Shown: positions 17,425-43,277, counted from the first letter of the stretch. The stretch is 64,000 nucleotides of DNA from an uncultured bacterium (GCA_964607485.1 CAZSKP010000006.1:43344-107343), one strand, 5' to 3'. Notes: generated from the letters alone by a model not told the origin. Translations and numbers: made by a program.

Positions 17425-17453
17425 CCTCCTCCTGCTCGGAGGAGCTGACATTC

Positions 17454-17598: not shown

Positions 17599-17633
17599 GC
17601 GTAGCAACATTGTGAGGAGATATTCGATTTCCG

Positions 17634-18836: not shown

Positions 18837-18846
18837 GGAGACTGCA

Positions 18847-19755: not shown

Positions 19756-19773
19756 GAAGAGGGCTGTCTCGAA

Positions 19774-21420: not shown

Positions 21421-22081
21421 CAATATCAGCTTTCGGATGAAGGCGCTCCTTTGCGTTCTGGCGATCGTTATCGGCATCAACGTGCTTTTTTTCGCCGTGT
21501 TTAGGCCGAAGATTTCTTCGATGGTCCAAACGAAGACGAGGCTCGAGACGCTCGTGGCCGAGATAAACAGGGAAGCCAGGGAAGAAACCGACTTCGTCGT
21601 ACCCACCGCGGAGGAGCAGAGGGAGTGGATGGGGGTCGAGTCGGAGCTGAGACGGAGGATTCCCGAAGACATGGAACTGCCTCGAGTGCTTGAAAGCATT
21701 GCGACATTGGCAAAGGACACGGGAATCGAAGACCTCACAATGGCCAGCCTGCCTCAGGATGCCGATGAAAATGCACCGGGTGACCGGGTCGTCCAAATTG
21801 GCGACAAGAAGTTCTCACTCTCTTCCGGAGGCGACGCTCCCGAAGGGACGAATCCGCTGGGGAATCTGGAGCTGGAGCAGGCGACGATAGACATGACGTT
21901 TCACTCCGAGTACAAGGCGCTGGCCGAGTTTCTGGAGGGTTTGTGCGGCCTTCCCCGATTTGTGCTGATAAGGAAGCTCGACATCGAGCGCGAGCTCCCG
22001 ATGATTTCGGTCAGCGTGTCCGTGAGAGTCTTCTCGCTCGCAGAGGCGCAGACGCGCGTTCAGACGATCGAGTCGAATTGA
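21407..22081 (+). CDS. PilO/GspM/MshJ-like protein
   Basis: N-terminal TM, RRIPEDMELPRVLESI, YKALAEFLEGLCGLPRFVLIRKLDI. Overlaps the previous stop. Confidence 0.8.
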   Translation: MKLLDNISFRMKALLCVLAIVIGINVLFFAVFRPKISSMVQTKTRLETLVAEINREAREETDFVVPTAEEQREWMGVESELRRRIPEDMELPRVLESIATLAKDTGIEDLTMASLPQDADENAPGDRVVQIGDKKFSLSSGGDAPEGTNPLGNLELEQATIDMTFHSEYKALAEFLEGLCGLPRFVLIRKLDIERELPMISVSVSVRVFSLAEAQTRVQTIESN

Positions 22082-22092
22082 GGACAGCCAAA

Positions 22093-22668
22093 ATGGAACG
22101 GTGGTTTGACACGAAGCGATTGGGTCTGGGAATGCTTCTGGTGATATTCATTCTTGGCGCAGTCATCCTGTGGGTCGGCAAACCGAGCAATCTCGCCCAT
22201 GGCAGCCTCGTGCGGCCTGAGCAGTCGCTCTCGTCGAGCGAATCTCAATTCGAGGCCGACAGCTCATTAGAACAGATCAAGGGCTACTTCAATGACAAGT
22301 TCCTCGTGGACGATTACGTCCATGGCCCCGGCTGGTCGGAGCATCCGTGGGGGAGAAATCCCTTCCTGACGCCGGGCGAAATACGTTTCTTCGGGAGCGG
22401 CGAACGTACGGCGACCGCCCCGGGAAGCGCCGGCAACGCCGTGAGCAGCGGAATATCGATAGTGGGAATCATGTTGGGCTCGAATGAAAAGAAGATTGCC
22501 TTGGTTGACGACGGAAGAATGCTTCGCGTCGGCGACAAAGTTGGAAACGAGTTGGTGGCGAAGATCGATATCGACGGCGTTGTTCTTGCAAGCAAGAGTG
22601 GAAGCAGGCGCATCGAGCTGCCTCAGAGCACGGTCCGATTGGAGAGCGCCACCAGGACAGTTGAATAG
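22093..22668 (+). CDS. PilP/MshK/GspC-like protein
   Basis: N-terminal TM, WGRNPF, ISIVGIM...IALVDDGRMLRVGDKV; lies between the PilO-like gene and the secretin. Confidence 0.65.
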   Translation: MERWFDTKRLGLGMLLVIFILGAVILWVGKPSNLAHGSLVRPEQSLSSSESQFEADSSLEQIKGYFNDKFLVDDYVHGPGWSEHPWGRNPFLTPGEIRFFGSGERTATAPGSAGNAVSSGISIVGIMLGSNEKKIALVDDGRMLRVGDKVGNELVAKIDIDGVVLASKSGSRRIELPQSTVRLESATRTVE

Positions 22669-22696
22669 AGGGGATTCCAAAAGAAGGAATAGGCCA

Positions 22697-24481
22697 ATGC
22701 ATACGAGAGTTCTCCGACGTCACACTTCAGAGAAGCCCCGCCCGACGCTATGGATTGTTGTGACGGGATTTGGAGTTCTGCTGCTCTCTTCTCTTGTTGC
22801 TTGTTCGACATTGCAGCCGCAACCGCCGATGAAGAATATGGACGTCATGGTTGGAGCATCGTCCGAGCCCGAGCCGGCCGAACAGCCACCTAAGCTTGAA
22901 GAGAGGCCTCTGTTCCTGTTGGGCGAGAAGGAACCCCAAGCGGGCGAGACGGCGGCAGTCCTTCCGAAAAGATTTACGCTCTCCGTGCGCGACGCCGACA
23001 TTAAGGACGTTTTGATGGCCTTTTCCAAAGACAGCGATTACAACATCGTCATTAGTCCCTCCGTAGAGGGAAAGGTTTCGGTTGACCTGAAGGAAGTTGA
23101 CATCTTTCAAGCGCTCGATTCGATTCTGACCCCTCTGGGTTACACGTACATGCGCAAGGGGAATTTCTTCCGCATCATGCCCGAGCAACTGGTGACTCGT
23201 GCATTCTCGTTCAACTACGTCACCACTCGGCGCAAGAGCGAGCGCTCTCTGACATTCACGAATATGTCGGTTGTCGGTCAGACATCGAGCGTCAGTTTCA
23301 CGGGCGGCGCGAGCGGCTCGAGCGGTTCGAGCGGAGGCGGGGGAGGGAATAACCAGAGCGAGACCACGCTTGATGATATCGTCTCCTCCAGCATATGGAA
23401 CGATGTGCAGACGTCGCTGGAAACGATTGTCTTCGGCGATTCACAATCGTCTTCTACTGGCACGGAGCAGTTGACCGGATTCAGCCGCGGGGATGAGTTT
23501 GGCAGGCGCCTCATCGTGAATCCGCAGGGAGGAACGATCTACGTCTCGGCCTTCCCGCGCGAGATGGAACAGGTGGAAGCCTTTTTGAGCGACCTGGAGG
23601 AATCGGTCAGGCGCCAGGTGCTCATAGAGGCCAGGATACTGGAGGTGCTGCTGTCCGACGAATTCGCCTACGGCGTGAACTGGAGCTATGCCTTGAAATT
23701 CCCCCACCTGAGCGATCTGGGAGGAAACCTGCTCGATTTCACCGGGACCATTTCCGATTCCACCTTTAATCAGACCCTGGCGCCGGAGGAATCCGACTTT
23801 CAGATCGGTGTCGCCAACGACCATTTCTCCGCGTTGCTGAACACGCTCGCGAGGCGGGGTCAGGTGAACGTTCTGTCGAGTCCGCGCGTCTCGACCATGA
23901 ACAATCAACCCGCCGTCATACGCGTCATAAGGGACGAGGTCTTCTTCCAGGCCGATGTGGCTCCGATCGTGATTGTCAATGGAACGGTCACGGGCGGCGA
24001 AGTGGAGTATAACCCGGTGGTCCTGCCCATCGGCGTCGTGCTGGAGGTCACACCCCAGGTCGGCGACGACGACACCATCTCCATGGACATACATCCGACC
24101 ATTTCATCGATAGTGCGGGTTGAGAAGTCGCCGATCGGCGATGAGCAGCCCGTTGTCGACCGAAGAGAGATCGACACGGTGGTCAGGGTGCGCAACGGCG
24201 ACACGCTCGTGCTTGCGGGCCTCATTCAAGAAACGCATCAGGAAACCAACCGCGAAGTGCCTTTGGTCGGGAGAATTCCGGTCGTTGGCAGTCTCCTGTT
24301 CAAGGGTACGGACCAGGAAAATGCGAAAACGGAACTCGTGATAGTGATGAAGCCGACCATCCTGAGCGATTTCAGGATTGCGCGGATCCACGAGGAGAGC
24401 ATGAACAGGCTGGGACAACTGAAGCGAAAACCCTCCATGAACTTGAATCCTTACGTATACGACAAGAAAGCCGGGGAGTAA
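22697..24481 (+). CDS. mshL: Secretin, MshL-like lipoprotein
   Basis: Lipobox LVAC, TRAFSFNYVTTRR followed by a Ser/Gly insert, RQVLIEARILEV, VLSSPRVSTMNNQPA, VPLVGRIPVVGSLLF, KTELVIVMKP. Confidence 0.85.
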   Translation: MHTRVLRRHTSEKPRPTLWIVVTGFGVLLLSSLVACSTLQPQPPMKNMDVMVGASSEPEPAEQPPKLEERPLFLLGEKEPQAGETAAVLPKRFTLSVRDADIKDVLMAFSKDSDYNIVISPSVEGKVSVDLKEVDIFQALDSILTPLGYTYMRKGNFFRIMPEQLVTRAFSFNYVTTRRKSERSLTFTNMSVVGQTSSVSFTGGASGSSGSSGGGGGNNQSETTLDDIVSSSIWNDVQTSLETIVFGDSQSSSTGTEQLTGFSRGDEFGRRLIVNPQGGTIYVSAFPREMEQVEAFLSDLEESVRRQVLIEARILEVLLSDEFAYGVNWSYALKFPHLSDLGGNLLDFTGTISDSTFNQTLAPEESDFQIGVANDHFSALLNTLARRGQVNVLSSPRVSTMNNQPAVIRVIRDEVFFQADVAPIVIVNGTVTGGEVEYNPVVLPIGVVLEVTPQVGDDDTISMDIHPTISSIVRVEKSPIGDEQPVVDRREIDTVVRVRNGDTLVLAGLIQETHQETNREVPLVGRIPVVGSLLFKGTDQENAKTELVIVMKPTILSDFRIARIHEESMNRLGQLKRKPSMNLNPYVYDKKAGE

Positions 24482-24487
24482 TCCAAC

Positions 24488-25420
24488 ATGTACGAGGAAT
24501 ATTTCGGGCTGAAAGAGCTGCCGTTTCACATAACACCCGACCCCAAGTTCATCTTCATGAGCAACGCGCACAGAGAGGGGCTGAATCACCTGCTTTACGG
24601 AATCAAGATGCGCAAAGGCTTCCTCGCGCTTATCGGCGAAGTGGGAATGGGGAAGACAACTCTGTACCGCTTCCTTTTCGAGAAACTTGGCCCCGCCTAT
24701 CCGACGGCGGTCGTGCTCAATCCGCTCCTTACCGGCAAACAGATGATCACCGCCATTCTGAGAGATTTTGACGTTCCCGTGACTTCGATAGGAAGAACCG
24801 GCGAGGCTCTGGTCGATAAGCTCAACCGTTTCTTGAAGTCGAAAAACGAGGAGAAAAAGATCCCCTTGCTGGTGGTGGACGAGGCGCACCAGCTTCCCGA
24901 TTCTCTGCTTGAGCTGCTCCGAATATTGTCCAACTATGAGACCAATCGGCAGAAGCTTCTCCAAATTCTTATGGTGGGACAGCCCGAACTGCTCCGAAGA
25001 CTTTCCTCGCCGGCCCTCCGGCAATTGAACCAGCGCATCAACGTACGCTGCTACCTCGGCGGGCTGGAGAAGGACGAGGTGAATCGGTACATCGAGCATC
25101 GGCTCACGGTCGGGGGCAACAACGGCAGTATTCGGTTCACTCCCGGCGCAAACCGGGTGATACGAAAGTCTTCACGCGGCGTCCCGAGATTGGTGAATCA
25201 GATTTGCGACAGGGCGCTCCTGAGCGCGTTTGTCCACGGCGTTCGAGTGGTCCGCAGGCGAGACGTGAGAGAAGCCATTGTGAGCCTCGAGGGCGGCTGC
25301 AGCCTGTCGCCTCTGTCGTTTCATGGCCCGTCCGGTTCGGAGTCGTATGTGGGAAGCTCGAACCAGCGGTTGAAGTTCTGCCAGCTATCTCCCGACTTGA
25401 AGATTGGAGTGCACGTATGA
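24488..25420 (+). CDS. ExeA/MshM-type AAA ATPase
   Basis: MYEEYFGLKELPFHITPDP, GEVGMGKT, VVDEAH, VGQPEL, GVPRLVNQICD. Confidence 0.92.
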   Translation: MYEEYFGLKELPFHITPDPKFIFMSNAHREGLNHLLYGIKMRKGFLALIGEVGMGKTTLYRFLFEKLGPAYPTAVVLNPLLTGKQMITAILRDFDVPVTSIGRTGEALVDKLNRFLKSKNEEKKIPLLVVDEAHQLPDSLLELLRILSNYETNRQKLLQILMVGQPELLRRLSSPALRQLNQRINVRCYLGGLEKDEVNRYIEHRLTVGGNNGSIRFTPGANRVIRKSSRGVPRLVNQICDRALLSAFVHGVRVVRRRDVREAIVSLEGGCSLSPLSFHGPSGSESYVGSSNQRLKFCQLSPDLKIGVHV

Positions 25421-26634
25421 GCCTTATCACGGAGGCGCTCAACAAATTAGACGACCGGATGAGGCCCGGAGACGTGGACGCGCACGGTGGAGACGACGCC
25501 GAGCCGATTCCCATCGCTCGCAGGCAGACTGCAAGGAAGAAAAGAAAGAAGGCGCTCTATCTTATTCCGGCCGCTCTTCTCATTATCGCAATCGGAGGCT
25601 TTCTCTCACTGAAATTCTTCGTGAAGCACCGGCCCGACAGAACCGTCGTGGCTCGGCAAGTCGAATCGAACAACGGAAGAAACGCTCCTGAAACCGGCGT
25701 GCCGGCAGTATCACAGCCTCCGGCGCAGGACGAACCGGCCGACCCGGCGGCGAGTGAGCCACAGGATGCCTCCCAAGAACCATCCGCGCCGCCGGTTGAA
25801 GAAGCGGCAGCGGCGGCGACACCGCCGACAGCAGAACCGACTCCGTCTTCATCCGTCGAGAACCCCGGTTCCGAGACCCCCGTTGCCATTAACGAGGGAA
25901 CGGTTGCAACCGAGGAACCGATTGCAGAAGAGCAAACCCCCTCCGAACCACCGGCCGAGGCCGCCATCGAAGAAGCGGAAGAGCATGATGCTGAAACAGC
26001 GTCGAGTCTTGTAACCGTATCGGCGACAGAGTCGATGCGTCAGAAATTTGCGGAGGCCTTCGACCGCGCGGTCGCTTATCATAGAGCCAAGGACTACTTC
26101 AACGCTCTCAGTTGCTACAAGCAATGTCTATCTATCAATCCCGATGCGTCGGATGTGTATGCGAACATGGGAATCATATGCACCATCATGGAAGATTATG
26201 ACGCCGCAATTTCCCATCTGAAGAAGGCTTTGAGCATAGACCCCAAGAACCCAACAGCGCATAACAACCTCGGAGTCATCTACCTGCAACGCAACGACAA
26301 TAAACATGCGTTCGCAGAATTTGAGTCGGCCCTGACTCAGAATCCCGACAACCCGGAAAGCTGTGTCAACCTTGGACTCGCCTGCATGGGACTGGGGCGT
26401 CCGAGCGGGGCGGCCCAGGCGTTTGAAGCGGCCTTGCGGCTTGCGCCCGCTCAGCCGGATGCGCATTACAATTATGCCCTGCTCCTGGACAGGCAAGGCG
26501 ACTATGAGGAAGCTATCCACCATTACTCGCAGTTTGTCCAATGGGCCGAGAAGAACGAACCCCGGAGCGTCCAACAGGTGCGAAACCGAATTCTGTATCT
26601 CCAGAAGAAACGCCTCTCGCACGAAAGCCACTAA
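25417..26634 (+). CDS. MshN-like TPR protein
   Basis: ATGA-coupled start MSLITEALNKL, TM, Pro/Ala/Glu-rich linker, several TPRs (AHNNLGVIY, AHYNYALLL). Confidence 0.8.
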   Translation: MSLITEALNKLDDRMRPGDVDAHGGDDAEPIPIARRQTARKKRKKALYLIPAALLIIAIGGFLSLKFFVKHRPDRTVVARQVESNNGRNAPETGVPAVSQPPAQDEPADPAASEPQDASQEPSAPPVEEAAAAATPPTAEPTPSSSVENPGSETPVAINEGTVATEEPIAEEQTPSEPPAEAAIEEAEEHDAETASSLVTVSATESMRQKFAEAFDRAVAYHRAKDYFNALSCYKQCLSINPDASDVYANMGIICTIMEDYDAAISHLKKALSIDPKNPTAHNNLGVIYLQRNDNKHAFAEFESALTQNPDNPESCVNLGLACMGLGRPSGAAQAFEAALRLAPAQPDAHYNYALLLDRQGDYEEAIHHYSQFVQWAEKNEPRSVQQVRNRILYLQKKRLSHESH

Positions 26635-26645
26635 GGAGAACCGAG

Positions 26646-28196
26646 TTGATTGAGGATATCAATGTAAAAAGACTGCTCGCTGAATCGGACAATCTTCCCA
26701 CAATGCCGGCAGTAGCCAGCCAGCTCTTGGTAATCACAGAGTGGGAGAATGTGGACTTGGGCAAGGTGGCGGAGACGATAAGCAAGGATGTCTCGCTCAC
26801 CTCCAAGATCCTGCGCGTAGTCAACTCGCCCTTCTACGGGCTGGGGCAGGAAATAAGCACCATATCGCAGGCGCTGGTAGTGCTCGGGGCACGGGCCACG
26901 CGGTCGCTTACTCTCAGCTTTTCCATATTGACGATGTGCAAGGGCGACGGGACGTCTCGGTTTGATTATCCCGGCTTCTGGACACGGTCGCTCAACACGG
27001 CGGCCGTTGCGCGCGAACTTGCGTTCGCTGTGGGGCTTCGGACAGAGGAAGAGGCCTTCCTCGCAGGGCTGTTACAGAACATGGGCGTCATGGTGGTCGC
27101 CCGATGTGTTCCACAATTGTATGCTCGCGTCGTCGGGGAAGCCGGAGACAAACTCGCGCCTTCGCTTGAGGCGGAGAGAGAGCACCTGGGCATCGACCAC
27201 GTCGAGGTGGCCAAATTGCTTTTCGAGAAATGGAATCTGCCGGCCTCGCTGTGCATACCGATCTTCTACCACCACACCCCGGAGAAAGCGAATAACGCCG
27301 AGGGCCAGACGCTTACCTCGATTCGCATCCAATATTTTGCGGGACGCGTCGGAGAGTGGCTGTATAGCCACGACGGCGACGACGCATTGCTGCAAGAACT
27401 TAAGAAAGAAGCGTCACAGTATTTCGATATTTCTCCAAACGAATTCGAAGCGCTCATGTACCGGGTTGACACCAAGATGGAGGAGATGTCTGAGCTTTTT
27501 GAATTGAGCAAATCAAGGCCCAATACCTATGCGAATCTTCTGGAACAGGCGAATCTTAAGCTCGGCGATATCGTCAGCAAACAGGAACGCCTTCTCAGGG
27601 AGCTCGAAGCGGCCAAGGTCGAGGCGCAGACGCTCGCCGAACAGCTCCGCATAGCGAACAATAAGCTGCTTGAGGAAGCGCGGAGAGACCCGCTCACCGA
27701 CCTGCCCAACCGGCGACTGTTTGAAGAGTTCCTCCGGAAAGAACTGGAGCGTTCGATACGATACCATCATCCTATTGCGTTGTTGTTCATCGATATCGAC
27801 GACTTCAAGTCGTTGAACGACCGGTACGGGCACCTGGAGGGAGATTCGGCGCTGAGGCAGGTGGCACACGTTCTGGGGAAAGGAGTTCGCGTGAGCGACA
27901 TCGTGGCCCGCTACGGCGGGGAAGAGTTTATCGTGGCGCTTGTGGAAACCAGGAGCACCGAAGCGATGGCGGTCGCCGAACGGCTCAGGCGCTCCATCGA
28001 GGAGACGCCGATTCATTCCAGTGAAGGTGACACGCCCATACGCCTGACCGCGAGCATAGGCGCAACGACGTGGGAACCCCCCAGCCAGCCCGTGAGCATA
28101 GACGAGCTCATAGAAGAGGCCGACCGCGCCATGTATCGGGCCAAGAAAGCGGGAAAAAATTGCGTTGTAACTGAAAATGAGCAGGTCCCGCAGTAG
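26646..28196 (+). CDS. HDOD-GGDEF diguanylate cyclase
   Basis: TTG start after AAGGAG. HDOD motifs (LPTMPAVA, KILRVVNSPFYG, AFLAGLLQNMG, WNLP), coiled coil, DPLTDLPNRR, I-site RVSD, active site GGEEF. Confidence 0.93.
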   Translation: MIEDINVKRLLAESDNLPTMPAVASQLLVITEWENVDLGKVAETISKDVSLTSKILRVVNSPFYGLGQEISTISQALVVLGARATRSLTLSFSILTMCKGDGTSRFDYPGFWTRSLNTAAVARELAFAVGLRTEEEAFLAGLLQNMGVMVVARCVPQLYARVVGEAGDKLAPSLEAEREHLGIDHVEVAKLLFEKWNLPASLCIPIFYHHTPEKANNAEGQTLTSIRIQYFAGRVGEWLYSHDGDDALLQELKKEASQYFDISPNEFEALMYRVDTKMEEMSELFELSKSRPNTYANLLEQANLKLGDIVSKQERLLRELEAAKVEAQTLAEQLRIANNKLLEEARRDPLTDLPNRRLFEEFLRKELERSIRYHHPIALLFIDIDDFKSLNDRYGHLEGDSALRQVAHVLGKGVRVSDIVARYGGEEFIVALVETRSTEAMAVAERLRRSIEETPIHSSEGDTPIRLTASIGATTWEPPSQPVSIDELIEEADRAMYRAKKAGKNCVVTENEQVPQ

Positions 28197-28348
28197 CGGC
28201 CCAGAGCAGCCGCAGTCCATCCCAACCCCGGGATCCACCGGCAAAAGCGAGAATCCCATCCCTCATACCCGCCTCGCCCCTCTTTTTCCGCAATGAAGGA
28301 AAACCAAGAAAAGAACGGCCTATTGCCCAAAAAAACAAGTACCTATTT

Positions 28349-28453
28349 GTCATTCTGATCGAAGCGAAGAATCTCTGTTTTGAGATGAACATTTCCAGAA
28401 AAGCGAGAGATTCTTCGTCGCCCGGGTCTGCGACCCTTCGCTCCTCAGAATGA
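28349..28453. repeat. GTCAT...ATGA palindromic element, variant with a branched right arm
   Basis: GTCATTCTGATCGAAGCGAAGAATCTCT ... AGAGATTCTTCGTCG(insert)CTCCTCAGAATGA. Confidence 0.8.
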
Positions 28454-28532
28454 GAGTTCTGATAGACTTAGGAAACAAGAACCTGTTTGCGCAACACGCC
28501 GAAAAAAGGAGATTTTTCCGTCGATTTAGGGC

Positions 28533-28592
28533 TTGACAGCCGGCCGGTTTGGTGGTATAATGACACTGCGACGATATTATGACATAGTGTCA
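28533..28592 (+). promoter_or_regulatory. Consensus sigma70 promoter and TetR operator for the tetR-GRE operon
   Basis: TTGACA 28533-38, 17 bp, TATAAT 28556-61. Inverted repeat TGACACT...AGTGTCA (28561-28592) includes TGACA-TAG-TGTCA. Confidence 0.82.
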
Positions 28593-28605
28593 GAGGAGGC
28601 TCTGC

Positions 28606-29229
28606 ATGGCCAGACGGCATAGGATTGAACAAGAGAGGCAGGCGAGGATGGACCTCATCCTCGATAGCGCCGAGAAACTCTTCATAGAAAAGGGTTACAA
28701 CGATACTTCCATGAACGACATCGGCGAACGTGCCGATTTCAGCCGTACGTCGGTCTATCAATATTTCAGCAGCAAGGAGGAAATATACCTCTGCATCCTC
28801 GAGCAGTACAACGAATTGCTCACCGACCGTGTCGCCGAGGCCACCGCCAACGCGCTCACCACGCCTGATAAGATCAGGGCCTTTCTCGAAGAGATACGGA
28901 AGATGATAAAGGAGAAGCCGAATTTCTTCGGGCTGTATTTCATCCAGAGGCACCAGGTGGAACCGCGATTGTCTGAGGAACTCAGGGCACGGCTCAATAC
29001 AGAGCGGAGAAGGCTTGAGAACGTTTTCCGCGATTTCTATCGGGAGGGAGTCGAGAGGGGCGAGGTCCGCAACATAGGCGTCAAGGATGCCTCGAACCTC
29101 TTTTTTGCGCAGATCATGGGCATGATGTTGCTGCACGAGTACTACGGGAAAGAGTTCGATGTGACGCTCGACGAACACCTTGATAAGTCGCTTCAACTGT
29201 ATCTTGAGTTCGTCGAGAAGGTGGATTAA
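28606..29229 (+). CDS. TetR-family regulator
   Basis: ILDSAEKLFIEKGYNDTSMNDIGERADFSRTSVYQYFSSKEEI; SD GGAGG. Confidence 0.93.
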   Translation: MARRHRIEQERQARMDLILDSAEKLFIEKGYNDTSMNDIGERADFSRTSVYQYFSSKEEIYLCILEQYNELLTDRVAEATANALTTPDKIRAFLEEIRKMIKEKPNFFGLYFIQRHQVEPRLSEELRARLNTERRRLENVFRDFYREGVERGEVRNIGVKDASNLFFAQIMGMMLLHEYYGKEFDVTLDEHLDKSLQLYLEFVEKVD

Positions 29230-29254
29230 CCGGGCAGAGGGGGAGGTAATTGTC

Positions 29255-31723
29255 ATGGAACAGGCTGTTGCAGAGATACTATCGCCGCAAGAGGAGAGAA
29301 TAGAGCGAGGGGAGCCCATCGGGCTTGTCGGCGAGGACGCCCAGAGGAAACGAGCCAGAATCCACAAGATGCTGGAAGGTTTCAGGGACAAGCCGATAAG
29401 AATGAACCTGGAGAGGGCGCGCCTTCTTACGCAGTCATTCAAAGAAACCGAGGGCCAGCCGGTGGTGTTGAGGTGGGGCAAGGCCATGGCCCACATATTG
29501 CGCAACTTCCCCATTCATATCGACGAGGATGAATTGATCGTGGGCAGCGCCGGACCTCCCGGACGCTATGCCGTCTTCTTCCCGGAACTGGAGGAAAAGT
29601 TCTTCTCGCAGGAAGTCCGTCCGAGCGAACCGGACGAGCCGCTAGCGCTGACGGAGGAAGACGTACGAATTATCAACGAGGAGCTCAGACCTTATTGGGA
29701 AGGCAAGCAGTATCACACGGCGTACGTGAACGCCCTGCCCGAGGATACCCGCCGCCTGCTGGAACTGTATTGCATCGTCACCCCCACCGCGACGGCCCGC
29801 ACAAGCCTGGCATGGAACCACGACTATGAGAAGGTGCTCAAGCGAGGCCTCAGGGGATTCAAACAGGAGGCCGAGGAGAAGCTGGCCTCGCTCGACCCGC
29901 TGAATCCGAAGGACAAGCTGGAGAAAGAACCCTTCCTGAAGGCCGTGATACTTGTCTGCGACGCTATTGTCGAGTTCGCCAAGAGATACGCCGAGCTCGC
30001 GAGAAGCATGGCCAAAGATGAAGCGGACGAGGAAAGAAAGCGGGAGCTTCTGAACATCGCCGAGGTCTGCGAATGGGTTCCCGAAAATCCGGCCAGGACG
30101 TTTCACGAGGCCGTTCAGTCGCAATGGTTGATTCAGACCGTGTCCCGGCTCGAACAGCGCATCGGCGGAACGGTCGGCAACGGAAGGATCGACCAGTACT
30201 TCTATCCTTATTATAAGAAAGATATCGAGGAAGGTCGGATTACGAAGGACAAAGCGCTCGAGCTTATAGAATGCCTGTGGATCGGCATGGCAAAGAACGT
30301 CGAGATATACACGGCGCCGGGCAGCCTGTCCTTCACCGATGGGTACGCCCATTGGGAAGCGACCACGATAGGCGGCGTGACAAAAGAAGGAGAGGACGCG
30401 ACCAACGAGCTGTCCTACCTGATGCTCGAATCGAAGCGCGAATTCCCCCTCAACTATCCCGACCTCGCCGCGCGGATACACGCGCAGACACCCGAACCGT
30501 TCCTCCACGCAATCGCCGAGACGATAAAGGAAGGTACCGGCTTCCCCAAGCTTTTCTTCGACGAAGAGATCATTCCTCTTTTTCTCGCCAAAGGCGGGCA
30601 GGTGGAGGAGGCGAACGACTATTGCATATGCGGCTGCACCGAGGCGAAGATGCTGAACCGTGACGCGGTCTCGACCGGATGCGCCTGGACCAACCTGGGC
30701 GCCGTCGTCGAGATGACGCTCAATGACGGCAAGCTGAAACTGTTCGGCGAGCAGCAGATAGGCGTCAGCACCGGCGACGCGAGAAAGTTCGCCTCGTACG
30801 ACGACCTTTGGAACGCCTTCTGCCGCCAGGGCGAGAACGTCATGAAGCATACGTTCGTCCAGCAGTACGTCGCCGATACGCTCAAGTCGCGCTTCATCGC
30901 GGCGCCGATGTCGTCGATGCTCCACGACCTCTGCATGAAAGAGTGCAAGGACATGCATTCGGGTCCAATCGACGGGGCTCTCTACCTCGGGTTCATCGAC
31001 ACGCTCGGCTTTGCCACCGCGATAGATTCGCTGGCCGCCATAAAGAAACTCGTGTTCGACGACAAGAAGCTGACGATGGCCGAGCTGCTGGACGCGGTGG
31101 ACGCCAACTTCGACGGGAAAGAGGCCATAAGGCAGATGTGCCTGAACGCCCCCAAGTACGGCAACAACGACCCATACGCCGATTCGATAGGCCGCGACAT
31201 CGAGGAGTTCTTCGTCAAGCTGACCCGCAGGTACAAGTCGGCGTTCGGCGGGGAACTGGACATACGATACGTCACCATCACGGCGCATGTGCCGTTCGGA
31301 GCCGTGCTGGGCGCGACGCCCGACGGAAGGAAGGCGGGCGAGCCCATAGCCGAGGGTGTCAGCCCCTCTCAAGGCGCCGACAGGAAGGGGCCGACCGCGA
31401 GCCTCGCCTCCATCGCGAAGACCAAGGCGGCGGGCTACAAGGAGCGCGCGGCAAGGCTGCTGAACATGAAGCTGTCGCCGTCGGCGGTGGCGGGTAAAGA
31501 TGGCAGCAAGAAACTAATGTCGCTCATGAGGACCGCGTGCGACCTGAAAATGTGGCACCTGCAGTTCAACATCATCAACAGGGACACGCTCATCGCCGCG
31601 CAGAAAGACCCCGAAAAATATCGGGACCTGCTCGTCCGTGTCGCCGGCTACAGCGCGTACTTCGTGGACCTGACGCCGCAGCTTCAGGACGAGATAATAA
31701 AGAGAACGGAACACAGCTTTTAG
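29255..31723 (+). CDS. Glycyl radical enzyme, IslA/HpsG (C-S lyase)-like clade, substrate unknown
   Basis: Gly loop LLVRVAGYSAYF (Gly798), Cys loop YCICGCTEAKM (Cys461, Glu463). Blocks GYAHWEA, SKREFPLNYPDLAARIH and ERAARLLN match IslA as recalled. Confidence 0.92.
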   Translation: MEQAVAEILSPQEERIERGEPIGLVGEDAQRKRARIHKMLEGFRDKPIRMNLERARLLTQSFKETEGQPVVLRWGKAMAHILRNFPIHIDEDELIVGSAGPPGRYAVFFPELEEKFFSQEVRPSEPDEPLALTEEDVRIINEELRPYWEGKQYHTAYVNALPEDTRRLLELYCIVTPTATARTSLAWNHDYEKVLKRGLRGFKQEAEEKLASLDPLNPKDKLEKEPFLKAVILVCDAIVEFAKRYAELARSMAKDEADEERKRELLNIAEVCEWVPENPARTFHEAVQSQWLIQTVSRLEQRIGGTVGNGRIDQYFYPYYKKDIEEGRITKDKALELIECLWIGMAKNVEIYTAPGSLSFTDGYAHWEATTIGGVTKEGEDATNELSYLMLESKREFPLNYPDLAARIHAQTPEPFLHAIAETIKEGTGFPKLFFDEEIIPLFLAKGGQVEEANDYCICGCTEAKMLNRDAVSTGCAWTNLGAVVEMTLNDGKLKLFGEQQIGVSTGDARKFASYDDLWNAFCRQGENVMKHTFVQQYVADTLKSRFIAAPMSSMLHDLCMKECKDMHSGPIDGALYLGFIDTLGFATAIDSLAAIKKLVFDDKKLTMAELLDAVDANFDGKEAIRQMCLNAPKYGNNDPYADSIGRDIEEFFVKLTRRYKSAFGGELDIRYVTITAHVPFGAVLGATPDGRKAGEPIAEGVSPSQGADRKGPTASLASIAKTKAAGYKERAARLLNMKLSPSAVAGKDGSKKLMSLMRTACDLKMWHLQFNIINRDTLIAAQKDPEKYRDLLVRVAGYSAYFVDLTPQLQDEIIKRTEHSF

Positions 31724-31747
31724 GTATTACTCGGAGCAGTTATTAGT

Positions 31748-31829
31748 GTCATTCTGAGCGTAGCGAAGAATGTCAGAGATTACGTCAGGTGCGGAGAAAG
31801 ACGAGATCCTTCACTTCGTTCAGGATGAC
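31748..31829. repeat. GTCAT...ATGAC palindromic element
   Basis: GTCATTCTGAGCGTAGCGAAGAATGTC ... GAGATCCTTCACTTCGTTCAGGATGAC; arms near-identical to the 17454 copy. Confidence 0.9.
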
Positions 31830-31882
31830 GAAAGTGGGCAGGGCTGCCAATAGTAAGGCAGTTCACTGAGGGCATTGAGGAG

Positions 31883-31906
31883 GTGGGGGCGCACGGCGGT
31901 GCGCCC
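31883..31906 (+). repeat. GTAG-type REP-like hairpin
   Basis: GTGG-GGGCGCAC-GGCG-GTGCGCCC, with an 8-bp perfect stem. Confidence 0.5.
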
Positions 31907-31920
31907 TCGCCGCAATCCGC

Positions 31921-32868
31921 ATGAAACACAGAGCCGAAAACTCCAGCCGTCGAGATGGCGAGCTTGGACTCGTCTTCAACATACAGAAATTTTCCCTCCA
32001 CGACGGCTCCGGGATAAGGACACTGGTCTTTCTCAAAGGGTGTCCGTTGACGTGCAAGTGGTGCTCCAACCCCGAAGGGCAGTCCTATTCACCCGAGCTG
32101 GCATACAACGTGAACAAATGCATCGGAATGAATGAGTGTGACAGGTGCATGCGGGTTTGCAAACCGGGGGCGGTTCGAGAGGGCAGCGACGGAAAGGTGG
32201 AGATCGACAGAGAGCTGTGCGATAACTGCGGCAGTTGCGTCGATGTGTGTCCCTCCAAAGCCCTGGAGCTCTTCGGCAGGCACATGAGCGTGGACGATGT
32301 CATCAAGGTTGTCGAGGAGGACAGCGGCTTTTATGCGAGGTCCGGCGGCGGATTGACCCTCAGTGGCGGAGAGCCGTTGTCGCAGGCCAAGTTTGTCGGC
32401 CGGCTGCTCGAGGCGGCCCGCAGCCGGGGCATCGACACGGCGCTGGAGACCTCGGGATATTGTGACTGGGAAGACTTGAGATACGCGTGCAGTCTTGCAA
32501 ATCAAGTCTTCTTCGACATCAAATCAATGGATCCCAAAAAGCACAAAGATGCCGTCGGCGTCGAAAACGGGTTGATACTGGACAACTTTCGAAGGCTGTG
32601 CGAAAGCCTTCCGGATATTCCCATAATCGTACGGACGCCTATCATCCCGGGATTCAACGATTCGCCGAACGACATCAGGCTCATAGCAGACCTTATCGGC
32701 GCAATGCCGGGCTCACCCAAGCATGAGCTTCTCTCATACCACGGATTCGGCGAGCCCAAGTATCGACAATTGGGCAAGCAGTATCCACTGCAAGGTCTCA
32801 AGCCGCCGCCCGAAGAGCGCATGGCAGTCCTGAGGAGAGTGTTACGCTCGAGCGAATCTCCCGTGTGA
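31921..32868 (+). CDS. Glycyl radical enzyme activase (radical SAM) with 2x[4Fe-4S] ferredoxin insert
   Basis: IQKFSLHDGSGIRTLVFLKGCPLTCKWCSNPE, CIGMNECDRCMRVC and CDNCGSCVDVCP, GGLTLSGGEP. Confidence 0.95.
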   Translation: MKHRAENSSRRDGELGLVFNIQKFSLHDGSGIRTLVFLKGCPLTCKWCSNPEGQSYSPELAYNVNKCIGMNECDRCMRVCKPGAVREGSDGKVEIDRELCDNCGSCVDVCPSKALELFGRHMSVDDVIKVVEEDSGFYARSGGGLTLSGGEPLSQAKFVGRLLEAARSRGIDTALETSGYCDWEDLRYACSLANQVFFDIKSMDPKKHKDAVGVENGLILDNFRRLCESLPDIPIIVRTPIIPGFNDSPNDIRLIADLIGAMPGSPKHELLSYHGFGEPKYRQLGKQYPLQGLKPPPEERMAVLRRVLRSSESPV

Positions 32869-32906
32869 ATCCATCGGGGCCGGAGGCAACTTTCTCTCTG
32901 TGGCGC

Positions 32907-32935
32907 TTGACTTTAGGACAAGAATTTGTTATCTT
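32907..32935 (+). promoter_or_regulatory. sigma70 promoter of the tRNA-tig operon
   Basis: TTGACT, 17 bp, TATCTT with extended -10 TG. Confidence 0.65.
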
Positions 32936-32971
32936 TTTGTTACCGGGCGGAAGGGCCCGATTCTTTTGATT

Positions 32972-33044
32972 GGGCCGTTAGCTCAACTGGTAGAGCAAGT
33001 GACTCTTAATCACTAGGTTCGGGGTTCGAGTCCCTGACGGCTCA
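32972..33044 (+). tRNA. tRNA-Lys(CTT), CCA not encoded
   Basis: Acceptor GGGCCGT/ACGGCTC, D arm GCTC/GAGC, anticodon arm AGTGA-CTCTTAA-TCACT, T loop TTCGAGT. Confidence 0.95.
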
Positions 33045-33049
33045 CACGG

Positions 33050-33132
33050 GGGCGGGTGGCGGAATCTGGCAGACGCGCATGACTTAGGATCATGTACCAT
33101 GTGGTGTGCGGGTTCAAATCCCGCCCCGCCCA
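33050..33132 (+). tRNA. tRNA-Leu(TAG), CCA not encoded
   Basis: Acceptor GGGCGGG/CCCGCCC, anticodon arm CATGA-CTTAGGA-TCATG, long variable arm, T arm GCGGG-TTCAAAT-CCCGC. Confidence 0.95.
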
Positions 33133-33177
33133 CCGCCTCGCCTCACCGGGCATCACATTCCTACAGGGGGAATTCAC

Positions 33178-34518
33178 GTGAAAGTCAGTGTGGAAAAACC
33201 GTCAAGCTACCAGAGGGTCCTGACGATTGAGGTCCCTTCTGAGACGGTTGACGCAGAAATTGAGAACATCTATTCCAGAATTGATAAGACGGCCACCCAT
33301 CCAGGCTTCCGAAAGGGAAAAGTCCCTCGAAAGATAATCGAGAAAAAGTTTGGTAAATCGGTCCGCCTGGAGGCGGTCGAGTCCACTGTCTCTTCTTCTC
33401 TCAAAAAAGCGCTGGAAGAGCAGAAGCTTACTCCTCTGACCGACCCCGATTTCGACGACGTCAAGTTCGAAGACGAGGGACCGCTTTCGTTCAAGGCGAC
33501 GATAGAGATCGAGCCGACGGTCGAGCTGGGCGACTACAAGGAACTCGAGCTGAAATGCCCGAAGGCCGAGGTTACCGACGAAGATGTCGCAAGGGTTCTC
33601 GAAAGGCTGCGTCTAAACAATGCCAAGTACACTCCGGCGGAACGATCCGTTGAGAAAGGCGATATTGTCATAATCGATTTCGAGGGCTTCAAGGACGGCA
33701 AACCCGTGAAGGGCGTGAAGGCCGAAAACTTCCCATTGGAGGTGGGCTCCAACGTCTTCGGGGAGGATTTCGAGAATGAGCTCGTGGGAGCGGGCAAGGA
33801 TAATAAGAAGCAGATCACTGTCGCGTATCCCGAGGATTTTCGCACGAAGGAGCTGGCCGGCAAGGAGATAACGTTCGCGGTGACGGTGAAGGATGTCAAG
33901 GTGAGGCAGCTCCCCGACTTGGACGACGACTTTGCGAAGGACCTCGGCGAATACGATACACTCGATAAGCTGAAGCAGCACGTGCGCGAGAACCTCGAAA
34001 AGGACTTACGGAAGCGCATCGACCATTTTGTGCGTGAGCAGGCCCTGATGAAAGTTGTGACCGATTCGAAGGCGGAGATACCGCCCAAATTGAGGTCGAA
34101 AGTGGCCGCCTCCATATTCGAGGAAGAAGTAAAAAAACTGGCGTACCGTGGCGCCGACCGCGAGGCCCTGACCGCAGAACGTGACAAGATAGCGGAGTTC
34201 GCCGAAGCCGAGGCCGCGCGCCAGTTGAAGGTGACCTTTGTGACCGACGCAATAGCCCGGCAGGAGAACCTGGACGTCTCCGATGAGGAGCTGAATCAAA
34301 GCCTGGAGGAGACCATCAAGGAGTCGGAGCAGACCGACCCCCGTGTAAGGAGCTATTTGAACAGTGAGCGCGTGCGCGAACGCTACCGGGAGCAGCTACG
34401 GGTCGGGAAGATATTGGATTTTATCGTGAGCAGTGCTAAAATAGAAGAGGTCGATCAGGCGGCGGGCGGAGCTGCGTCCGCGCCGACCCCTGGCGGAGAA
34501 GAAGAAGGAGAAAGTTAG
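33178..34518 (+). CDS. tig: Trigger factor
   Basis: GTG start; PGFRKGKVP ribosome-binding motif; FKBP-like middle domain; precedes clpP. Confidence 0.96.
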   Translation: MKVSVEKPSSYQRVLTIEVPSETVDAEIENIYSRIDKTATHPGFRKGKVPRKIIEKKFGKSVRLEAVESTVSSSLKKALEEQKLTPLTDPDFDDVKFEDEGPLSFKATIEIEPTVELGDYKELELKCPKAEVTDEDVARVLERLRLNNAKYTPAERSVEKGDIVIIDFEGFKDGKPVKGVKAENFPLEVGSNVFGEDFENELVGAGKDNKKQITVAYPEDFRTKELAGKEITFAVTVKDVKVRQLPDLDDDFAKDLGEYDTLDKLKQHVRENLEKDLRKRIDHFVREQALMKVVTDSKAEIPPKLRSKVAASIFEEEVKKLAYRGADREALTAERDKIAEFAEAEAARQLKVTFVTDAIARQENLDVSDEELNQSLEETIKESEQTDPRVRSYLNSERVRERYREQLRVGKILDFIVSSAKIEEVDQAAGGAASAPTPGGEEEGES

Positions 34519-37055: not shown

Positions 37056-38740
37056 GTCTGCGCTTCTTCCTCCGAAACGTCGTATATGAAGATGGAATAT
37101 CCCAGGGTCTTTTTCGGTTGTAGCTTCTTCAGCCAGTCGTGGCAGTGCCGGTCTTTCAGGTAAAGGTTCTGAAGGTAAGTCGCGCTGACTGCCCATACAC
37201 CGGGAGAGGGCTCGCAGTCGTTCAGGTCGGCGTTTTTCAATCCATAGTATTCCATCACTCCGGGAGGCCCGAAGTATTTAATTTTCGCATCCGTTATGTC
37301 GTTTTTGGCAAGGTAATTTGCAAGCTCGCCGAGGCTCTGGCCCCAGTCGAGATTGGAGTCCACGAGATACTTATACCCGTTGCTCGGACCGCCGACCAAC
37401 TCGTTGAAATAGGCGAGATAGTGCGGATATATCCACGCCGCCGACGCCGCATACCAGACGCACAGCAGCGCCAGAGCTTGCCTCCATTTTTTCGATTCGG
37501 TGGTCGCGACTTTTCCGGCAAGAATACAAAACAGCGGGATCAGCGGAAGAATATATCTGAGCCCGATGTTTATCTTTGTCGGGAGCGAGAACAGTATTAT
37601 CATGGGCGCCATCGATAACAACAGAAAGCGTTCATCTTCTTTCCGCTCGTTCGCGTTTCTGCGCGTGACGAGCGCCACCGCGAGGAAAATGATGAATGGC
37701 AGCGGAGTTTTTATCAAAAAGGCCGCCCAGTAGAAATACCACCAGCCGGTGGACGAGATGTGACCGAAGAGGAAATTGTCTTTCCAGCCCTTGGCCGCCG
37801 CAAGCTGGGTGTAGATGCCGAGGATGTACGAATATGCCGGCACGCGCACCCCGCGACTTGCGAGCGCGTCCACCGCATGCCAGAACGGTTTTTCCTTCAC
37901 CAACCTCTGCGCCTCCGGCTTCAGCCACTCCGGCATGAATGGGACGCCGAACTGGAAGCCATAACCCGCCCAAACGACGAACACCGCGACGCCGAAAATG
38001 AGCGCGAGCCTCAACGCAAGTTGGCTCAGAGTGTGCGGGCGGCTCGATTTCTCCCCGGGCCGGCGCCACTGCATGAGCGCGACAAAGAGAAACGTGGGAA
38101 CCAGGATCAGCCCGGTGAACTTCGACAGCAACGCGAGGCCCAGCCCCAGCCCGGTCAGGAGAAGACGCCCGGCCGACGGATTCCGAAGGTAGCGGCTCAG
38201 CAAATACAGCGCCAGCGTCATGGTCAGCGCGAGCAGCAGGTCGGCCGTCGCCAGCCGGCAGTGCGCGAGAATCGTCGGACACAGCGCGTAAAGAAACGTC
38301 GCGAGAACGGCGGCGGATGCGCCGTAGATTTCTCTGCACCAGAGGAATACCAACAGTCCCAGCAGGGCCGAAAGGATGACAAACGGGACACGAGCCAGAA
38401 ACATCATGAGGGCGGGGGAGTGTCCTGAGTCGAACACCAGCGGCGGGCCGATGTACTTGCGATATATGTATTGCTCGTCGCCGAACCGGTCGGGCTGGAA
38501 CTTCAGCGGGAACAGCAGGAGGCTGTTTACGTAATAAGAGAGCGGCGGATGGAGCTGAAGCGCCGTGATTCCGTAGTTCCGCGTCTCAAGGAGCTGGCGG
38601 CCGACGCCGATGTAGCTAGGCTCGTCCCACGTGAGCGACGCCTGCCGCATGCTTCCCACCGCCAGCGCAACATGCACGGCGAGCAATGCGGCCACGACTC
38701 TTAAAATCGGGACAGAGCCTATTTTTTCGCCATTAATCAT
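37043..38740 (-). CDS. GT-C fold glycosyltransferase (ArnT/PMT-like, GT39/GT83)
   Basis: LTWDEPSY, HPPLSY, LLSKFTG, GWWYFY, IGLRYILP, LVDSNLDWGQ, many TMs. The first 11 codons lie inside the adjacent element. Confidence 0.85.
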   Translation of the reverse strand: MINGEKIGSVPILRVVAALLAVHVALAVGSMRQASLTWDEPSYIGVGRQLLETRNYGITALQLHPPLSYYVNSLLLFPLKFQPDRFGDEQYIYRKYIGPPLVFDSGHSPALMMFLARVPFVILSALLGLLVFLWCREIYGASAAVLATFLYALCPTILAHCRLATADLLLALTMTLALYLLSRYLRNPSAGRLLLTGLGLGLALLSKFTGLILVPTFLFVALMQWRRPGEKSSRPHTLSQLALRLALIFGVAVFVVWAGYGFQFGVPFMPEWLKPEAQRLVKEKPFWHAVDALASRGVRVPAYSYILGIYTQLAAAKGWKDNFLFGHISSTGWWYFYWAAFLIKTPLPFIIFLAVALVTRRNANERKEDERFLLLSMAPMIILFSLPTKINIGLRYILPLIPLFCILAGKVATTESKKWRQALALLCVWYAASAAWIYPHYLAYFNELVGGPSNGYKYLVDSNLDWGQSLGELANYLAKNDITDAKIKYFGPPGVMEYYGLKNADLNDCEPSPGVWAVSATYLQNLYLKDRHCHDWLKKLQPKKTLGYSIFIYDVSEEEAQTQAR

Positions 38741-39407
38741 GTTTTTTCAATGACTTAGAGGGGCGACCCCTCCTCGATTTCCGAAGTTTTCGGCCAAGTA
38801 CACGCTCAAGCTTATTGAGAAAATCAGGCGAACCTAGCGGATTTCCCGCCAGAGTTGAGCGTCTAATTTCGTCGGTCTCGGAGTGGGTTTCGCTTCTTGC
38901 GACGAATTCACGCCATTCCATGAGCAAATCCTTCGGGGGCCATCTTCTGGATAGGAGCCGGTCCATCTCGTCCATGTGACCCCGTGTGCTCGACCACAAA
39001 TAATCCCAAGGCCGCGCCACCGACCCGGCTCTCACGGGGTTCCGCTCAACATAGCGGACGGCGGCCAGCGTGTGCATCTCGTCGAGAATGCACGAGAAAA
39101 AACGCCCTTGCCAGAGATGCCCGGACTGAGAGTATTTTCGGTTGAAATGTTGGGCGTAGCGCATGTGCGTATCGGCGAGCGTTCGAGCCAGTGAATGTTG
39201 GCTCTTGGGGACGCACACGAGGTGGACATGGTTGGACATCAAGCAGTACGCGAAAATCTCAAGGCCGTGCTTTTCGCGATACCTCGCAAGCAGGTCGAGA
39301 TAGAGACGGCGGTCGGCATCGTCCAGAAAAACCTCCTGTTGCCTGTTACCGCGCTGAGTCACGTGATGCGGAAGACCCGCGGCCACGACTCTGGCTATTC
39401 TCGGCAT
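38733..39407 (-). CDS. Y1 (HUH) tyrosine transposase, RAYT/IS200-like
   Basis: PHHVTQRGN, AYCLMSNHVHL (HUH), GHLWQGRF, RYVERNPVRAG (catalytic Tyr), YLWSS. Confidence 0.93.
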   Translation of the reverse strand: MPRIARVVAAGLPHHVTQRGNRQQEVFLDDADRRLYLDLLARYREKHGLEIFAYCLMSNHVHLVCVPKSQHSLARTLADTHMRYAQHFNRKYSQSGHLWQGRFFSCILDEMHTLAAVRYVERNPVRAGSVARPWDYLWSSTRGHMDEMDRLLSRRWPPKDLLMEWREFVARSETHSETDEIRRSTLAGNPLGSPDFLNKLERVLGRKLRKSRRGRPSKSLKKHD

Positions 39408-42212: not shown

Positions 42213-42215
42213 CGT

Positions 42216-43010: not shown

Positions 43011-43277
43011 GGCGGATCCTTTCTCTGCGACGTCGTATAGCTCGATTTCTAAACACGCGTCGAATAATGACAAAACAAAAACATATTCTACTCCTTTATC
43101 ATCCAAAATTCAATTTTCCTAAGGAACAACGGAAATTTGCCCGAAAAACCGTGAATCCTTTCCCACGAGCCGGGCGCAATTCGCTTGCGATTCACGCCGC
43201 AGCGACCGGGTCCGATTTGCTAATCCTACTGCTGAGATTTGACACCAGTTGATCGGGCAGGATTCGTCGTTGAGGTC

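Follow-up and report, generated by a model that had tools for sequence, protein, structure and literature searches.

The 64-kb window analysed here, i.e. the whole stretch of 64,000 nucleotides from the uncultured bacterium GCA_964607485.1 (CAZSKP010000006.1:43344-107343), contains at positions 28533-32868 a unit of three genes on the plus strand. They code for a TetR-family regulator of 207 amino acids (28606..29229; Pfam domains TetR_N and TetR_C_24, PF00440 with 62 bits and PF17932 with 29.5 bits), an oxygen-sensitive glycyl radical enzyme (GRE; P0001) of 822 amino acids (29255..31723) and, after a spacer of 197 nt, a GRE-activating radical S-adenosylmethionine (SAM) enzyme of 315 amino acids (31921..32868). 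The mechanical open reading frame (ORF) list opens the GRE gene at TTG 29180, within tetR; we prefer ATG 29255 because a ribosome-binding site, GGGGGAGG, lies upstream of it and homologs align from residues 1-8. The GRE was recognised from its translation, its Pfam domains (PFL-like PF02901, 632 bits; Gly_radical PF01228, 108 bits) and alignments to PDB chains. The PFL-like domain, an RVxG motif (RVAGYSAYF, which includes Gly798), the catalytic loop Cys461 and a cognate activase place it in the GRE superfamily, and the sequence C461-T-E463 conforms to the C-x-E motif, a feature common to GRE eliminases in which the Glu hydrogen-bonds the substrate hydroxyl (PMC13450708, section 5.6). Both Cys and Glu are present in 120 of 120 listed homologs, and from this motif 1,2-eliminase activity is predicted. 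The activase scores 340 bits with TIGR02494 (cut-off 174), carries the motif C41-x3-C45-x2-C48 and combines radical SAM and ferredoxin-like cluster domains in Pfam, the latter as an insert. Upstream of the unit lies an HDOD-GGDEF gene, itself preceded by pilus genes; downstream are tRNA-Lys(CTT) at 32972-33045, directly after the activase, and tRNA-Leu(TAG) at 33050-33134, followed by tig, clpP and clpX. Pfam and library scans of the 64 kb revealed no microcompartment shell, aldehyde dehydrogenase, sulfonate transporter or sulfite reductase gene, so the original prediction was right that no gene of the first three kinds adjoins the unit. An Rfam scan of 27500-33500 gave the two tRNAs only, and no riboswitch.

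The same prediction described a stand-alone tetR-GRE-activase unit with its own promoter and operator, an arrangement that we recovered here and that is conserved across the related loci described below. The sigma-70 type promoter (28533..28561, plus strand) is composed of TTGACA at 28533-28538, a 17-nt spacer containing a TG and TATAAT at 28556-28561, which amounts to 12 of 12 consensus matches plus the TG extension. The predicted operator (28561..28592, plus strand) is composed of an imperfect site, TGACActgCGACG, at 28561-28573 and, 19 bp apart from it, a perfect 13-bp palindrome, TGACATAGTGTCA, at 28580-28592, the part that is conserved between loci; the palindrome GACACT...AGTGTC, earlier noticed at 28563-28592, is indeed present. 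The predicted operator overlaps the -10 hexamer as well as the site where transcription probably begins, and the natural interpretation is a repressor that controls its own gene. The regulator has the make-up of a TetR-family repressor, with a helix-turn-helix domain at the N-terminus, a ligand domain made entirely of helices (the whole model, pLDDT 93, contains nine) and a palindrome at its own promoter, and it probably binds this operator and represses the unit.

Residue positions in the GRE were counted by hand on HMMER alignments to PDB chains 7kq3 (IslA), 5ymr (IseG) and 6lon (HpsG), which are its best PDB matches (IseG 5YMR 993 bits, IslA 7KQ3 957 bits, HpsG 6LON 923 bits). The offset of -7 relative to IslA, as given in the original prediction, is correct on the PDB alignment. 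The catalytic residues C468, E470 and G805 of IslA correspond to C461, E463 and G798, the conserved W374 to W367 and the anion-binding arginines R189 and R678 to R182 and R671; these residues are kept in comparison with all three enzymes, as had been claimed, and V680 of IslA is also retained, as Val673. The substitutions named in the original prediction stood up equally well on the PDB alignments: the sulfonate-binding Q193 is replaced by A186, and the packing residues T312, F682 and Y587 by G305, I675 and F580, while F188, S315 and R472 have become A181, G308 and K465. Five of the changes turn a large pocket residue into a small one (F188 to A181, F682 to I675, F590 to T583, T312 to G305 and S315 to G308). 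The loop before Arg182 is shortened as described, with seven residues absent before Leu169. The Cys loop reads YCICGCTE in the GRE, YAVSGCIE in IslA, YAVSGCTE in IseG and YAISGCTE in HpsG; this part of the claim holds, but just one of the two additional cysteines, C457, is conserved (in 115 of the 120 listed homologs), position 459 being Cys in 45, Ala in 43, Thr in 23, Val in 6 and Ser in 3. The notion of a rebuilt pocket likewise holds in part: Phe682 to Ile and Thr312 to Gly are real, but HpsG, whose pocket was taken from the review PMC13450708 and the PDB alignment, itself has Ile and Ala there, so that part of the rebuilding is common with a lyase of 2,3-dihydroxypropane-1-sulfonate (DHPS).

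What sets the GRE apart from all three enzymes is the position of the Gln, which is present in IslA, IseG and HpsG and is Ala186 here. Consequently neither the Arg/Gln/Arg triad of IslA and IseG (R189, Q193 and R678 in IslA; R182, A186 and R671 here) nor that of HpsG (R183/Q187/R672, with Ala186 in the place of Gln187) is found. Characterised C-S lyases each hold the sulfonate by two Arg and one Gln (PMC13450708, section 5.6.3), and Q193 of IslA is described as a unique conserved Gln sited at the leaving sulfite (PMC6386719). IslA Q193A forms 17% glycyl radical and its sulfite release is undetectable, while F682A, with an efficiency down about 50-fold, retains low activity (PMC8473560, Table 2), and V680A is dead (PMC8473560). 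Because of the residual activity of F682A, the packing residues do not by themselves decide for or against an isethionate lyase. Isethionate is contacted in IseG by R187, Q191, R676, F680, I190 and T310 (PMC6453916); the corresponding residues of the GRE are R182, A186, R671, I675, L185 and G305, so that four of the six differ. No Arg/Ala/Arg enzyme is named among the characterised eliminases in sections 5.6, 5.7 and 7 of the 2026 review (PMC13450708).

We examined the conservation of these residues in a homolog set made up of the best 120 of 2786 matches at E <= 1e-100 (7999 candidates scored), which share 66-100% identity with the GRE. A186, G305, R182, R671, C461, E463, W367, K465 and D582 occur in 120 of 120 listed homologs and G798 in 119 (one row is gapped), while position 675 is Ile in 100 and Val in 20. 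When 116 full-length members were compared with 21 relatives having Arg/Gln/Arg, several residues proved to be specific to the group: A186 (Gln in 21 of 21 relatives), G305 (Ala in 18 relatives, Thr in 3), K465 and K544 (Arg in 21 of 21), further T474, Y577 and D690, and a small number of positions away from the pocket. The deletion of seven residues, which lies before strand beta1, and a second deletion of one residue are also specific to it. In phylogenetic trees the group is monophyletic (SH-aLRT 100), its stem measuring 0.28-0.30 changes per site, and it stands apart from the IseG/IslA-like and HpsG-like clades in both trees. The first tree (FastTree) contained 58 rows, made up of all GREs from the loci with 45% identity or more, five outgroup sequences and 9 of 119 database homologs; the second (IQ-TREE quick search, LG+G4) was made from a 33-row subset of the same sets. 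Both were built by quick methods and their root depends on distant outgroups. The outcome that had been named as refuting the original prediction, a position among characterised GREs with identical pocket residues, was not observed: the GRE was found in a clade of its own. This clade is uncharacterised, and we call it R-A-R after its anion site Arg182/Ala186/Arg671. It comprises at least 120 clusters at 90% identity, and its metagenome-assembled genomes (MAGs) come from soil, groundwater and subsurface samples and are labelled as many phyla. Our literature search yielded no paper on an Arg/Ala/Arg GRE, a TetR-linked GRE of this branch or a GRE that acts as a C-P lyase.

The sister group (support 96-98) of the R-A-R clade is a four-member Arg/Gln/Arg clade of Desulfotruncus arcticus (L013), Desulfocucumis palustris (L012) and two MAGs (L011, L049), and the two clades together are sister to the IseG/IslA-like and HpsG-like proteins. 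Its members are the nearest relatives of the GRE (59-64% identity) and resemble it in Thr/Asp/Leu-type small residues at several pocket positions; they differ in keeping the Gln, in having no deletion and in their operon, which is GntR-(MFS)-SDR-GRE-activase, SDR being a short-chain dehydrogenase/reductase, with no tetR. At IslA positions F188, T312 and F682 the sister clade has Ile, Ala and Val. No characterisation of it was found in the literature, and it may represent a further sulfonate lyase specificity.

A scan of species-representative genomes gave 71 loci, of which 23 hold a member of the R-A-R clade (at least 73% identity), 19 of these with flanks. Neighbouring genes were defined by crude ORF calls in the 71 loci, BLAST clustering and subsequent Pfam and NCBIfam searches, and tetR and activase genes by tblastn. 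All 23 clade loci are in MAGs, labelled Abyssobacteria/Hydrogenedentota, Dehalococcoidia, Poribacteria, Thermodesulfobacteriota, Gemmatimonadota, Spirochaetales or 'delta proteobacterium'. The activase gene lies 3' of the GRE gene in 21 of 21 clade loci that reach that far. Orthologs of the regulator (63-77% identity) were found directly 5' of the GRE gene in 17 of the 19 clade loci having upstream sequence and in 0 of 48 loci of other GREs; of the six clade loci lacking tetR, four begin inside the GRE gene, while L006 and L037 have upstream sequence and no tetR. The palindrome TGACAnnnTGTCA, with one mismatch at most, is present in all 17 tetR upstream regions (16 loci and the window), for a total of 36 matches to the pattern in 1.07 Mb of loci and window; the single match within the window is the one at 28580-28592. 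Most of the 17 regions have a second imperfect site 5' of the palindrome, placed 19 bp upstream in five loci (L005, L017, L018, L019 and L022), the same spacing as in the window, and 13 of the 17 (12 of 16 loci and the window) have an exact TTGACA hexamer 5' of tetR.

No partner that would indicate the substrate is common to the 23 clade loci (19 with flanks); tetR and the activase gene alone recur. The remaining neighbours are shared by a minority of loci. An OYE/FadH-like flavoenzyme gene is situated just 5' of the unit in L006, L007, L020 and L021, and a shorter one in L061. In L006 (7886-12460), which lacks tetR, this gene abuts the GRE gene with a gap of about 36 nt, while in the near-identical L007 (7133-12457) tetR stands between the two. 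NifS follows the activase in L006, L007, L020, L021 and L048, with NifU beside it in the first four. In L017 and L018, genes for a thiamine pyrophosphate (TPP) enzyme of the acetolactate-synthase / 2-hydroxyacyl-CoA-lyase type and for a VOC protein are oriented divergently to tetR; the TPP enzyme gene is present in L022 as well, where the contig ends inside it so that the VOC position is missing. L017 further contains a true Xsc (838 bits, cut-off 620), a sulfatase and an acyl-CoA ligase, and L018 a class III aminotransferase and an SDR. In L004 a true PhnW (481 bits, cut-off 296) and PhnX (305 bits, cut-off 220) are located 1.2 kb 3' of the activase, and an aldehyde:ferredoxin oxidoreductase is found as well. 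L044 has an M24 hydrolase and an MFS transporter in operon position, and L061 a double-cubane reductase with its activator. The TPP enzyme, the VOC protein, the SDR and the aldehyde:ferredoxin oxidoreductase are compatible with a carbonyl product. As a whole the neighbours hint at C2/C3 organosulfonate or organophosphonate chemistry, and they are too few to decide between them.

From these results we consider it reasonably probable that the unit is a self-contained, TetR-repressed module in which a 1,2-eliminase of the R-A-R clade and its activase act on a hydroxylated anion other than isethionate or DHPS. TetR, bound to the operator over the -10 region, would silence tetR, the GRE gene and the activase gene until a ligand frees it. 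The activase would then install the radical on Gly798, from which a thiyl radical would form on Cys461 and abstract hydrogen from the substrate carbon that carries the hydroxyl, while Glu463 would remove the proton of the hydroxyl. The anionic group, held by Arg182 and Arg671, could depart from the neighbouring carbon or migrate, and the product radical would regain a hydrogen atom from Cys461 to give a carbonyl compound. Since the Gln is lost and bulky pocket residues are now small, the substrate would be a hydroxylated organic anion either larger than isethionate or with a different anionic group; it is probably not DHPS either.

Several observations weigh against this reading. The scores to the solved IseG, IslA and HpsG are high, and HpsG already has Ile and Ala at the Phe682 and Thr312 positions. 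Both Arg are retained, so that water or the clade-specific Tyr577 might replace the Gln and keep sulfonate chemistry, and the substrate-touching residues used in the comparison come from the published IslA and IseG structures rather than from a model of this protein. Two loci have sulfonate-type neighbours, the Xsc of L017 and the class III aminotransferase and SDR of L018, which fits C2-sulfonate metabolism, even that of isethionate. The likeness of the regulator to acyl-CoA sensors, discussed below, agrees poorly with a small hydroxy-anion as substrate. Finally, the NCBIfam equivalog for HpsG, NF048011, scores the GRE at 1207 bits (cut-off 1000) and the model for HpsH, NF048010, scores the activase at 433.3 bits (cut-off 430), and because both cut-offs are exceeded an automatic pipeline would call the GRE a DHPS enzyme.

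To judge the last point we checked the specificity of NF048011 on 11 other GREs. Two other members of the R-A-R clade score 1133 bits, the sister clade 1395-1441 bits and IseG/IslA-like and HpsG-like proteins, including that of Bilophila wadsworthia (L035), 1474-1588 bits, so that the R-A-R clade, at 1133-1207 bits, has the lowest scores of the branches tested. No isethionate-lyase model appeared among the NCBIfam matches for the GREs scanned. Since IseG-like, HpsG-like and sister proteins all score higher, the result is an over-broad label and not evidence for DHPS; the model spans the whole IslA/IseG/HpsG branch with the clade as its weakest match, and we rejected the assignment to HpsG on this basis. 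It should be added that the 1000-bit cut-off also lets in IseG/IslA-like proteins, the sister clade and the R-A-R clade, and that NF048011 is described as '(2S)-3-sulfopropanediol dehydratase', while in PMC13450708 HpsG is the sulfolyase and HpfG the dehydratase. The models for other eliminases of the C-x-E class score the GRE far below their cut-offs, namely NF048009 for the DHPS dehydratase HpfG (487 bits, cut-off 1000) and the models for choline TMA-lyase CutC (601, cut-off 1050) and hydroxyproline dehydratase HypD (586, cut-off 1100).

The other explanations differ in the anion that they assume. The one that survives best, which we nevertheless regard as somewhat unlikely, is that the GRE is a C-S lyase for another, larger sulfonate, such as 3-sulfolactate (giving pyruvate and sulfite), a 2-hydroxyalkanesulfonate or a fragment of a sulfo-sugar. 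Both trees derive the GRE from inside the Arg/Gln/Arg sulfonate-lyase branch, its Arg pair is retained, the enlarged pocket is compatible with such a substrate, and Ile675, which HpsG also has, gives space for a C3 substituent; a pyruvate-like product needs no dedicated downstream enzyme, which matches a stand-alone module, and L017 has its Xsc. It is more difficult to reconcile with the loss, in all 120 listed homologs, of the Gln that contacts the leaving sulfite, or with the absence of adjoining sulfonate transporter and sulfite-handling genes, the sole transporter in operon position being the MFS protein of L044, and no paper on such a GRE came up in our literature search.

We hold it to be unlikely that the anion is not a sulfonate at all. 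In that case the anionic group of a phosphonate, carboxylate, phosphate ester or sulfate ester would be lost through elimination or shifted by 1,2-migration. The authors of the IslA study considered that Gln193 and Thr312 would sterically block migration chemistry (PMC8473560, Discussion), and these two proposed blockers are Ala and Gly in 120 of 120 listed homologs, with both anion-binding Arg kept. 2-Hydroxyethylphosphonate is not turned over by IslA (PMC8473560, Discussion). In other eliminases the site of Gln193 is occupied by a general acid His or by an Asp (PMC8473560), and Ala in this place suggests that the leaving group departs without assistance from it. PhnW and PhnX in L004 are the phosphonate neighbours that one could expect, but they occur in just one of the 23 clade loci, no phosphite- or phosphate-handling genes were seen among the neighbours, and an organism that bears PhnX would have no need of a GRE for the same carbon skeleton. 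The evidence on this side comes wholly from sequence, and no such GRE emerged from the literature search. In its most far-reaching form, this explanation would have the R-A-R clade carry out, on an anionic group other than sulfonate, a reaction that no GRE is known to perform, for example C-P cleavage of a 2-hydroxyalkylphosphonate via 1,2-migration, with phosphite and an aldehyde as products, or the removal of a sulfate or phosphate ester group by radical beta-elimination; this we regard as very doubtful.

It is quite unlikely that the GRE is a conventional sulfite-lyase of organosulfonates, with isethionate or DHPS as substrate, in which water or another residue such as Tyr577 makes up for the lost Gln and TetR is simply a different regulator. 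For all its solved relatives, its exceeded NF048011 cut-off, its kept Arg pair, Trp and V673 and the Xsc, aminotransferase and SDR of L017 and L018, it would have to work without the Gln whose exchange for Ala inactivates IslA, with four of six isethionate contacts changed, with A186 and G305 invariant at the end of a long stem and with the lowest NF048011 scores among the branches tested, and in loci (20 clade loci, Pfam) whose flanking ORFs contain neither a TauE-type sulfite exporter nor a dissimilatory sulfite reductase. Some of the host phyla, going by MAG labels, are not known as sulfite reducers.

Among characterised systems, the module proposed here, with its hydroxylated anion other than isethionate or DHPS, is closest to those of IseG (Desulfovibrio vulgaris, 5YMR) and IslA (B. 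wadsworthia, 7KQ3), which the GRE matches over the full length, within the same PFL-like fold family and with the same Gly radical and C-x-E motifs, both sulfonate-binding Arg, the IslA-type Trp, Val673 and a dedicated activase gene 3'. In addition to the seven-residue deletion and the exchanges of Gln193, Thr312, Phe682, Phe188, Tyr587 and Arg472 given above, the unit differs from them in its predicted TetR control, in belonging to a separate clade and in having no taurine/isethionate pathway or microcompartment genes. B. wadsworthia reportedly has microcompartment genes, as the title of a paper indicates. HpsG (B. wadsworthia, 6LON; L035) resembles the GRE in the Ile at the Phe682 position, in the small residue at the Thr312 position and in exceeding the cut-off of NF048011, a model that does not separate functions; identity to L035 is about 49-50%, and HpsG differs in having Gln187 in place of Ala186, a Tyr in place of Ala181 and no loop deletion. 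Two GRE genes on one Clostridia MAG contig (L045, 3735-6242 and 12368-14881) carry RSSQNW as beta1 motif, an Arg...Gln-Asn variant, and Phe instead of the IslA-type Trp, and constitute a further uncharacterised branch basal to the sulfonate-lyase group.

The nearest solved relatives of the regulator by sequence are mostly acyl-CoA sensors, with E values of 1e-9 to 1e-15 and both domains covered, and in fold it matches FadR with a TM score of 0.77-0.78, with or without stearoyl-CoA. The relatives found by sequence or fold are FadR of Bacillus, Thermus and Staphylococcus, FasR, PfmR, MbdR, KstR2 and AibR; identity to the acyl-CoA-responsive regulators (B. subtilis FadR 3WHB/3WHC, T. thermophilus FadR and PfmR, M. 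tuberculosis FasR, MbdR) is 17-27%. All TetR folds resemble one another, and the ligand-unrelated SmeT and DarR match about equally well. There is thus a weak lean toward an acyl-CoA-type ligand, to be taken as a lead only.

Functions in the GRE superfamily are assigned mainly from a few pocket residues. The R-A-R clade is in effect a natural 'Q193A/T312G' pocket that comes with a dedicated regulator and operator, a possible probe for its ligand, and the GRE is a well-defined target for enzymology. Because current NCBI models would name the clade a DHPS enzyme, it could be counted too often when metagenomes are surveyed for sulfonate degradation and H2S potential, and the clade is likely a source of mis-annotation in sulfonate surveys. 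Identification of the substrate would extend what is known of the range of radical elimination; an anion other than sulfonate would mean a new type of bond cleavage for the GRE family, and should phosphite be the product, an anaerobic biological source of phosphite in subsurface habitats. According to section 7 of the 2026 review (PMC13450708), whole GRE clades are still without experimental validation.

The surroundings of the unit contain clues to mobility. A 24-nt repeat (GTCATTCTGAKCGWAGCGAAGAAT-like) is dispersed in five copies over the window (7419-7442, 7473-7496 on the minus strand, 17454-17477, 28349-28372 and 31748-31771), where none is expected from 100 shuffles, and two copies flank tetR-GRE: 28349..28372 (plus strand) just 5' of the promoter and 31748..31771 (plus strand) within the spacer between the GRE and activase genes. 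It looks like a repetitive extragenic palindromic (REP) or miniature inverted-repeat transposable element (MITE) type sequence. Genes for tRNA are typical landing sites for mobile DNA. High identity across phylum labels, a flank that differs at nearly every locus, the adjoining tRNAs and the repeats around tetR-GRE suggest that the three-gene unit moves as a cassette. Errors in MAG binning could inflate the apparent phylum spread of the clade. A tblastn search of PLSDB plasmids gave a best identity of 39%, i.e. no clade member on a known plasmid.

Other features of the window were noted in passing. An IS200/Y1-type transposase gene is located at 38733-39407 (minus strand), and a homolog from the same BLAST cluster directly follows the activase in L001 (6153-6650, minus strand). 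A 3-dehydroquinate synthase II (PF01959) stands beside a DeoC/LacD-family aldolase at 41220-43106 (minus strand); such a pair is the archaeal-type dehydroquinate route, while the window is bacterial-looking. At 44023-45969 (minus strand) a second TetR-family gene (45358-45969) is found beside a ferredoxin-type 4Fe-4S protein of 369 amino acids (44023-45132). The pilus/secretion cluster at 15715-26634 encodes a type II secretion (T2SS-E) ATPase with MshEN, T2SS-F, a pseudopilin, PilM/PilO-like proteins and an MshL-type secretin, followed by an XrtA/PEP-CTERM-associated ATPase and a TPR protein.

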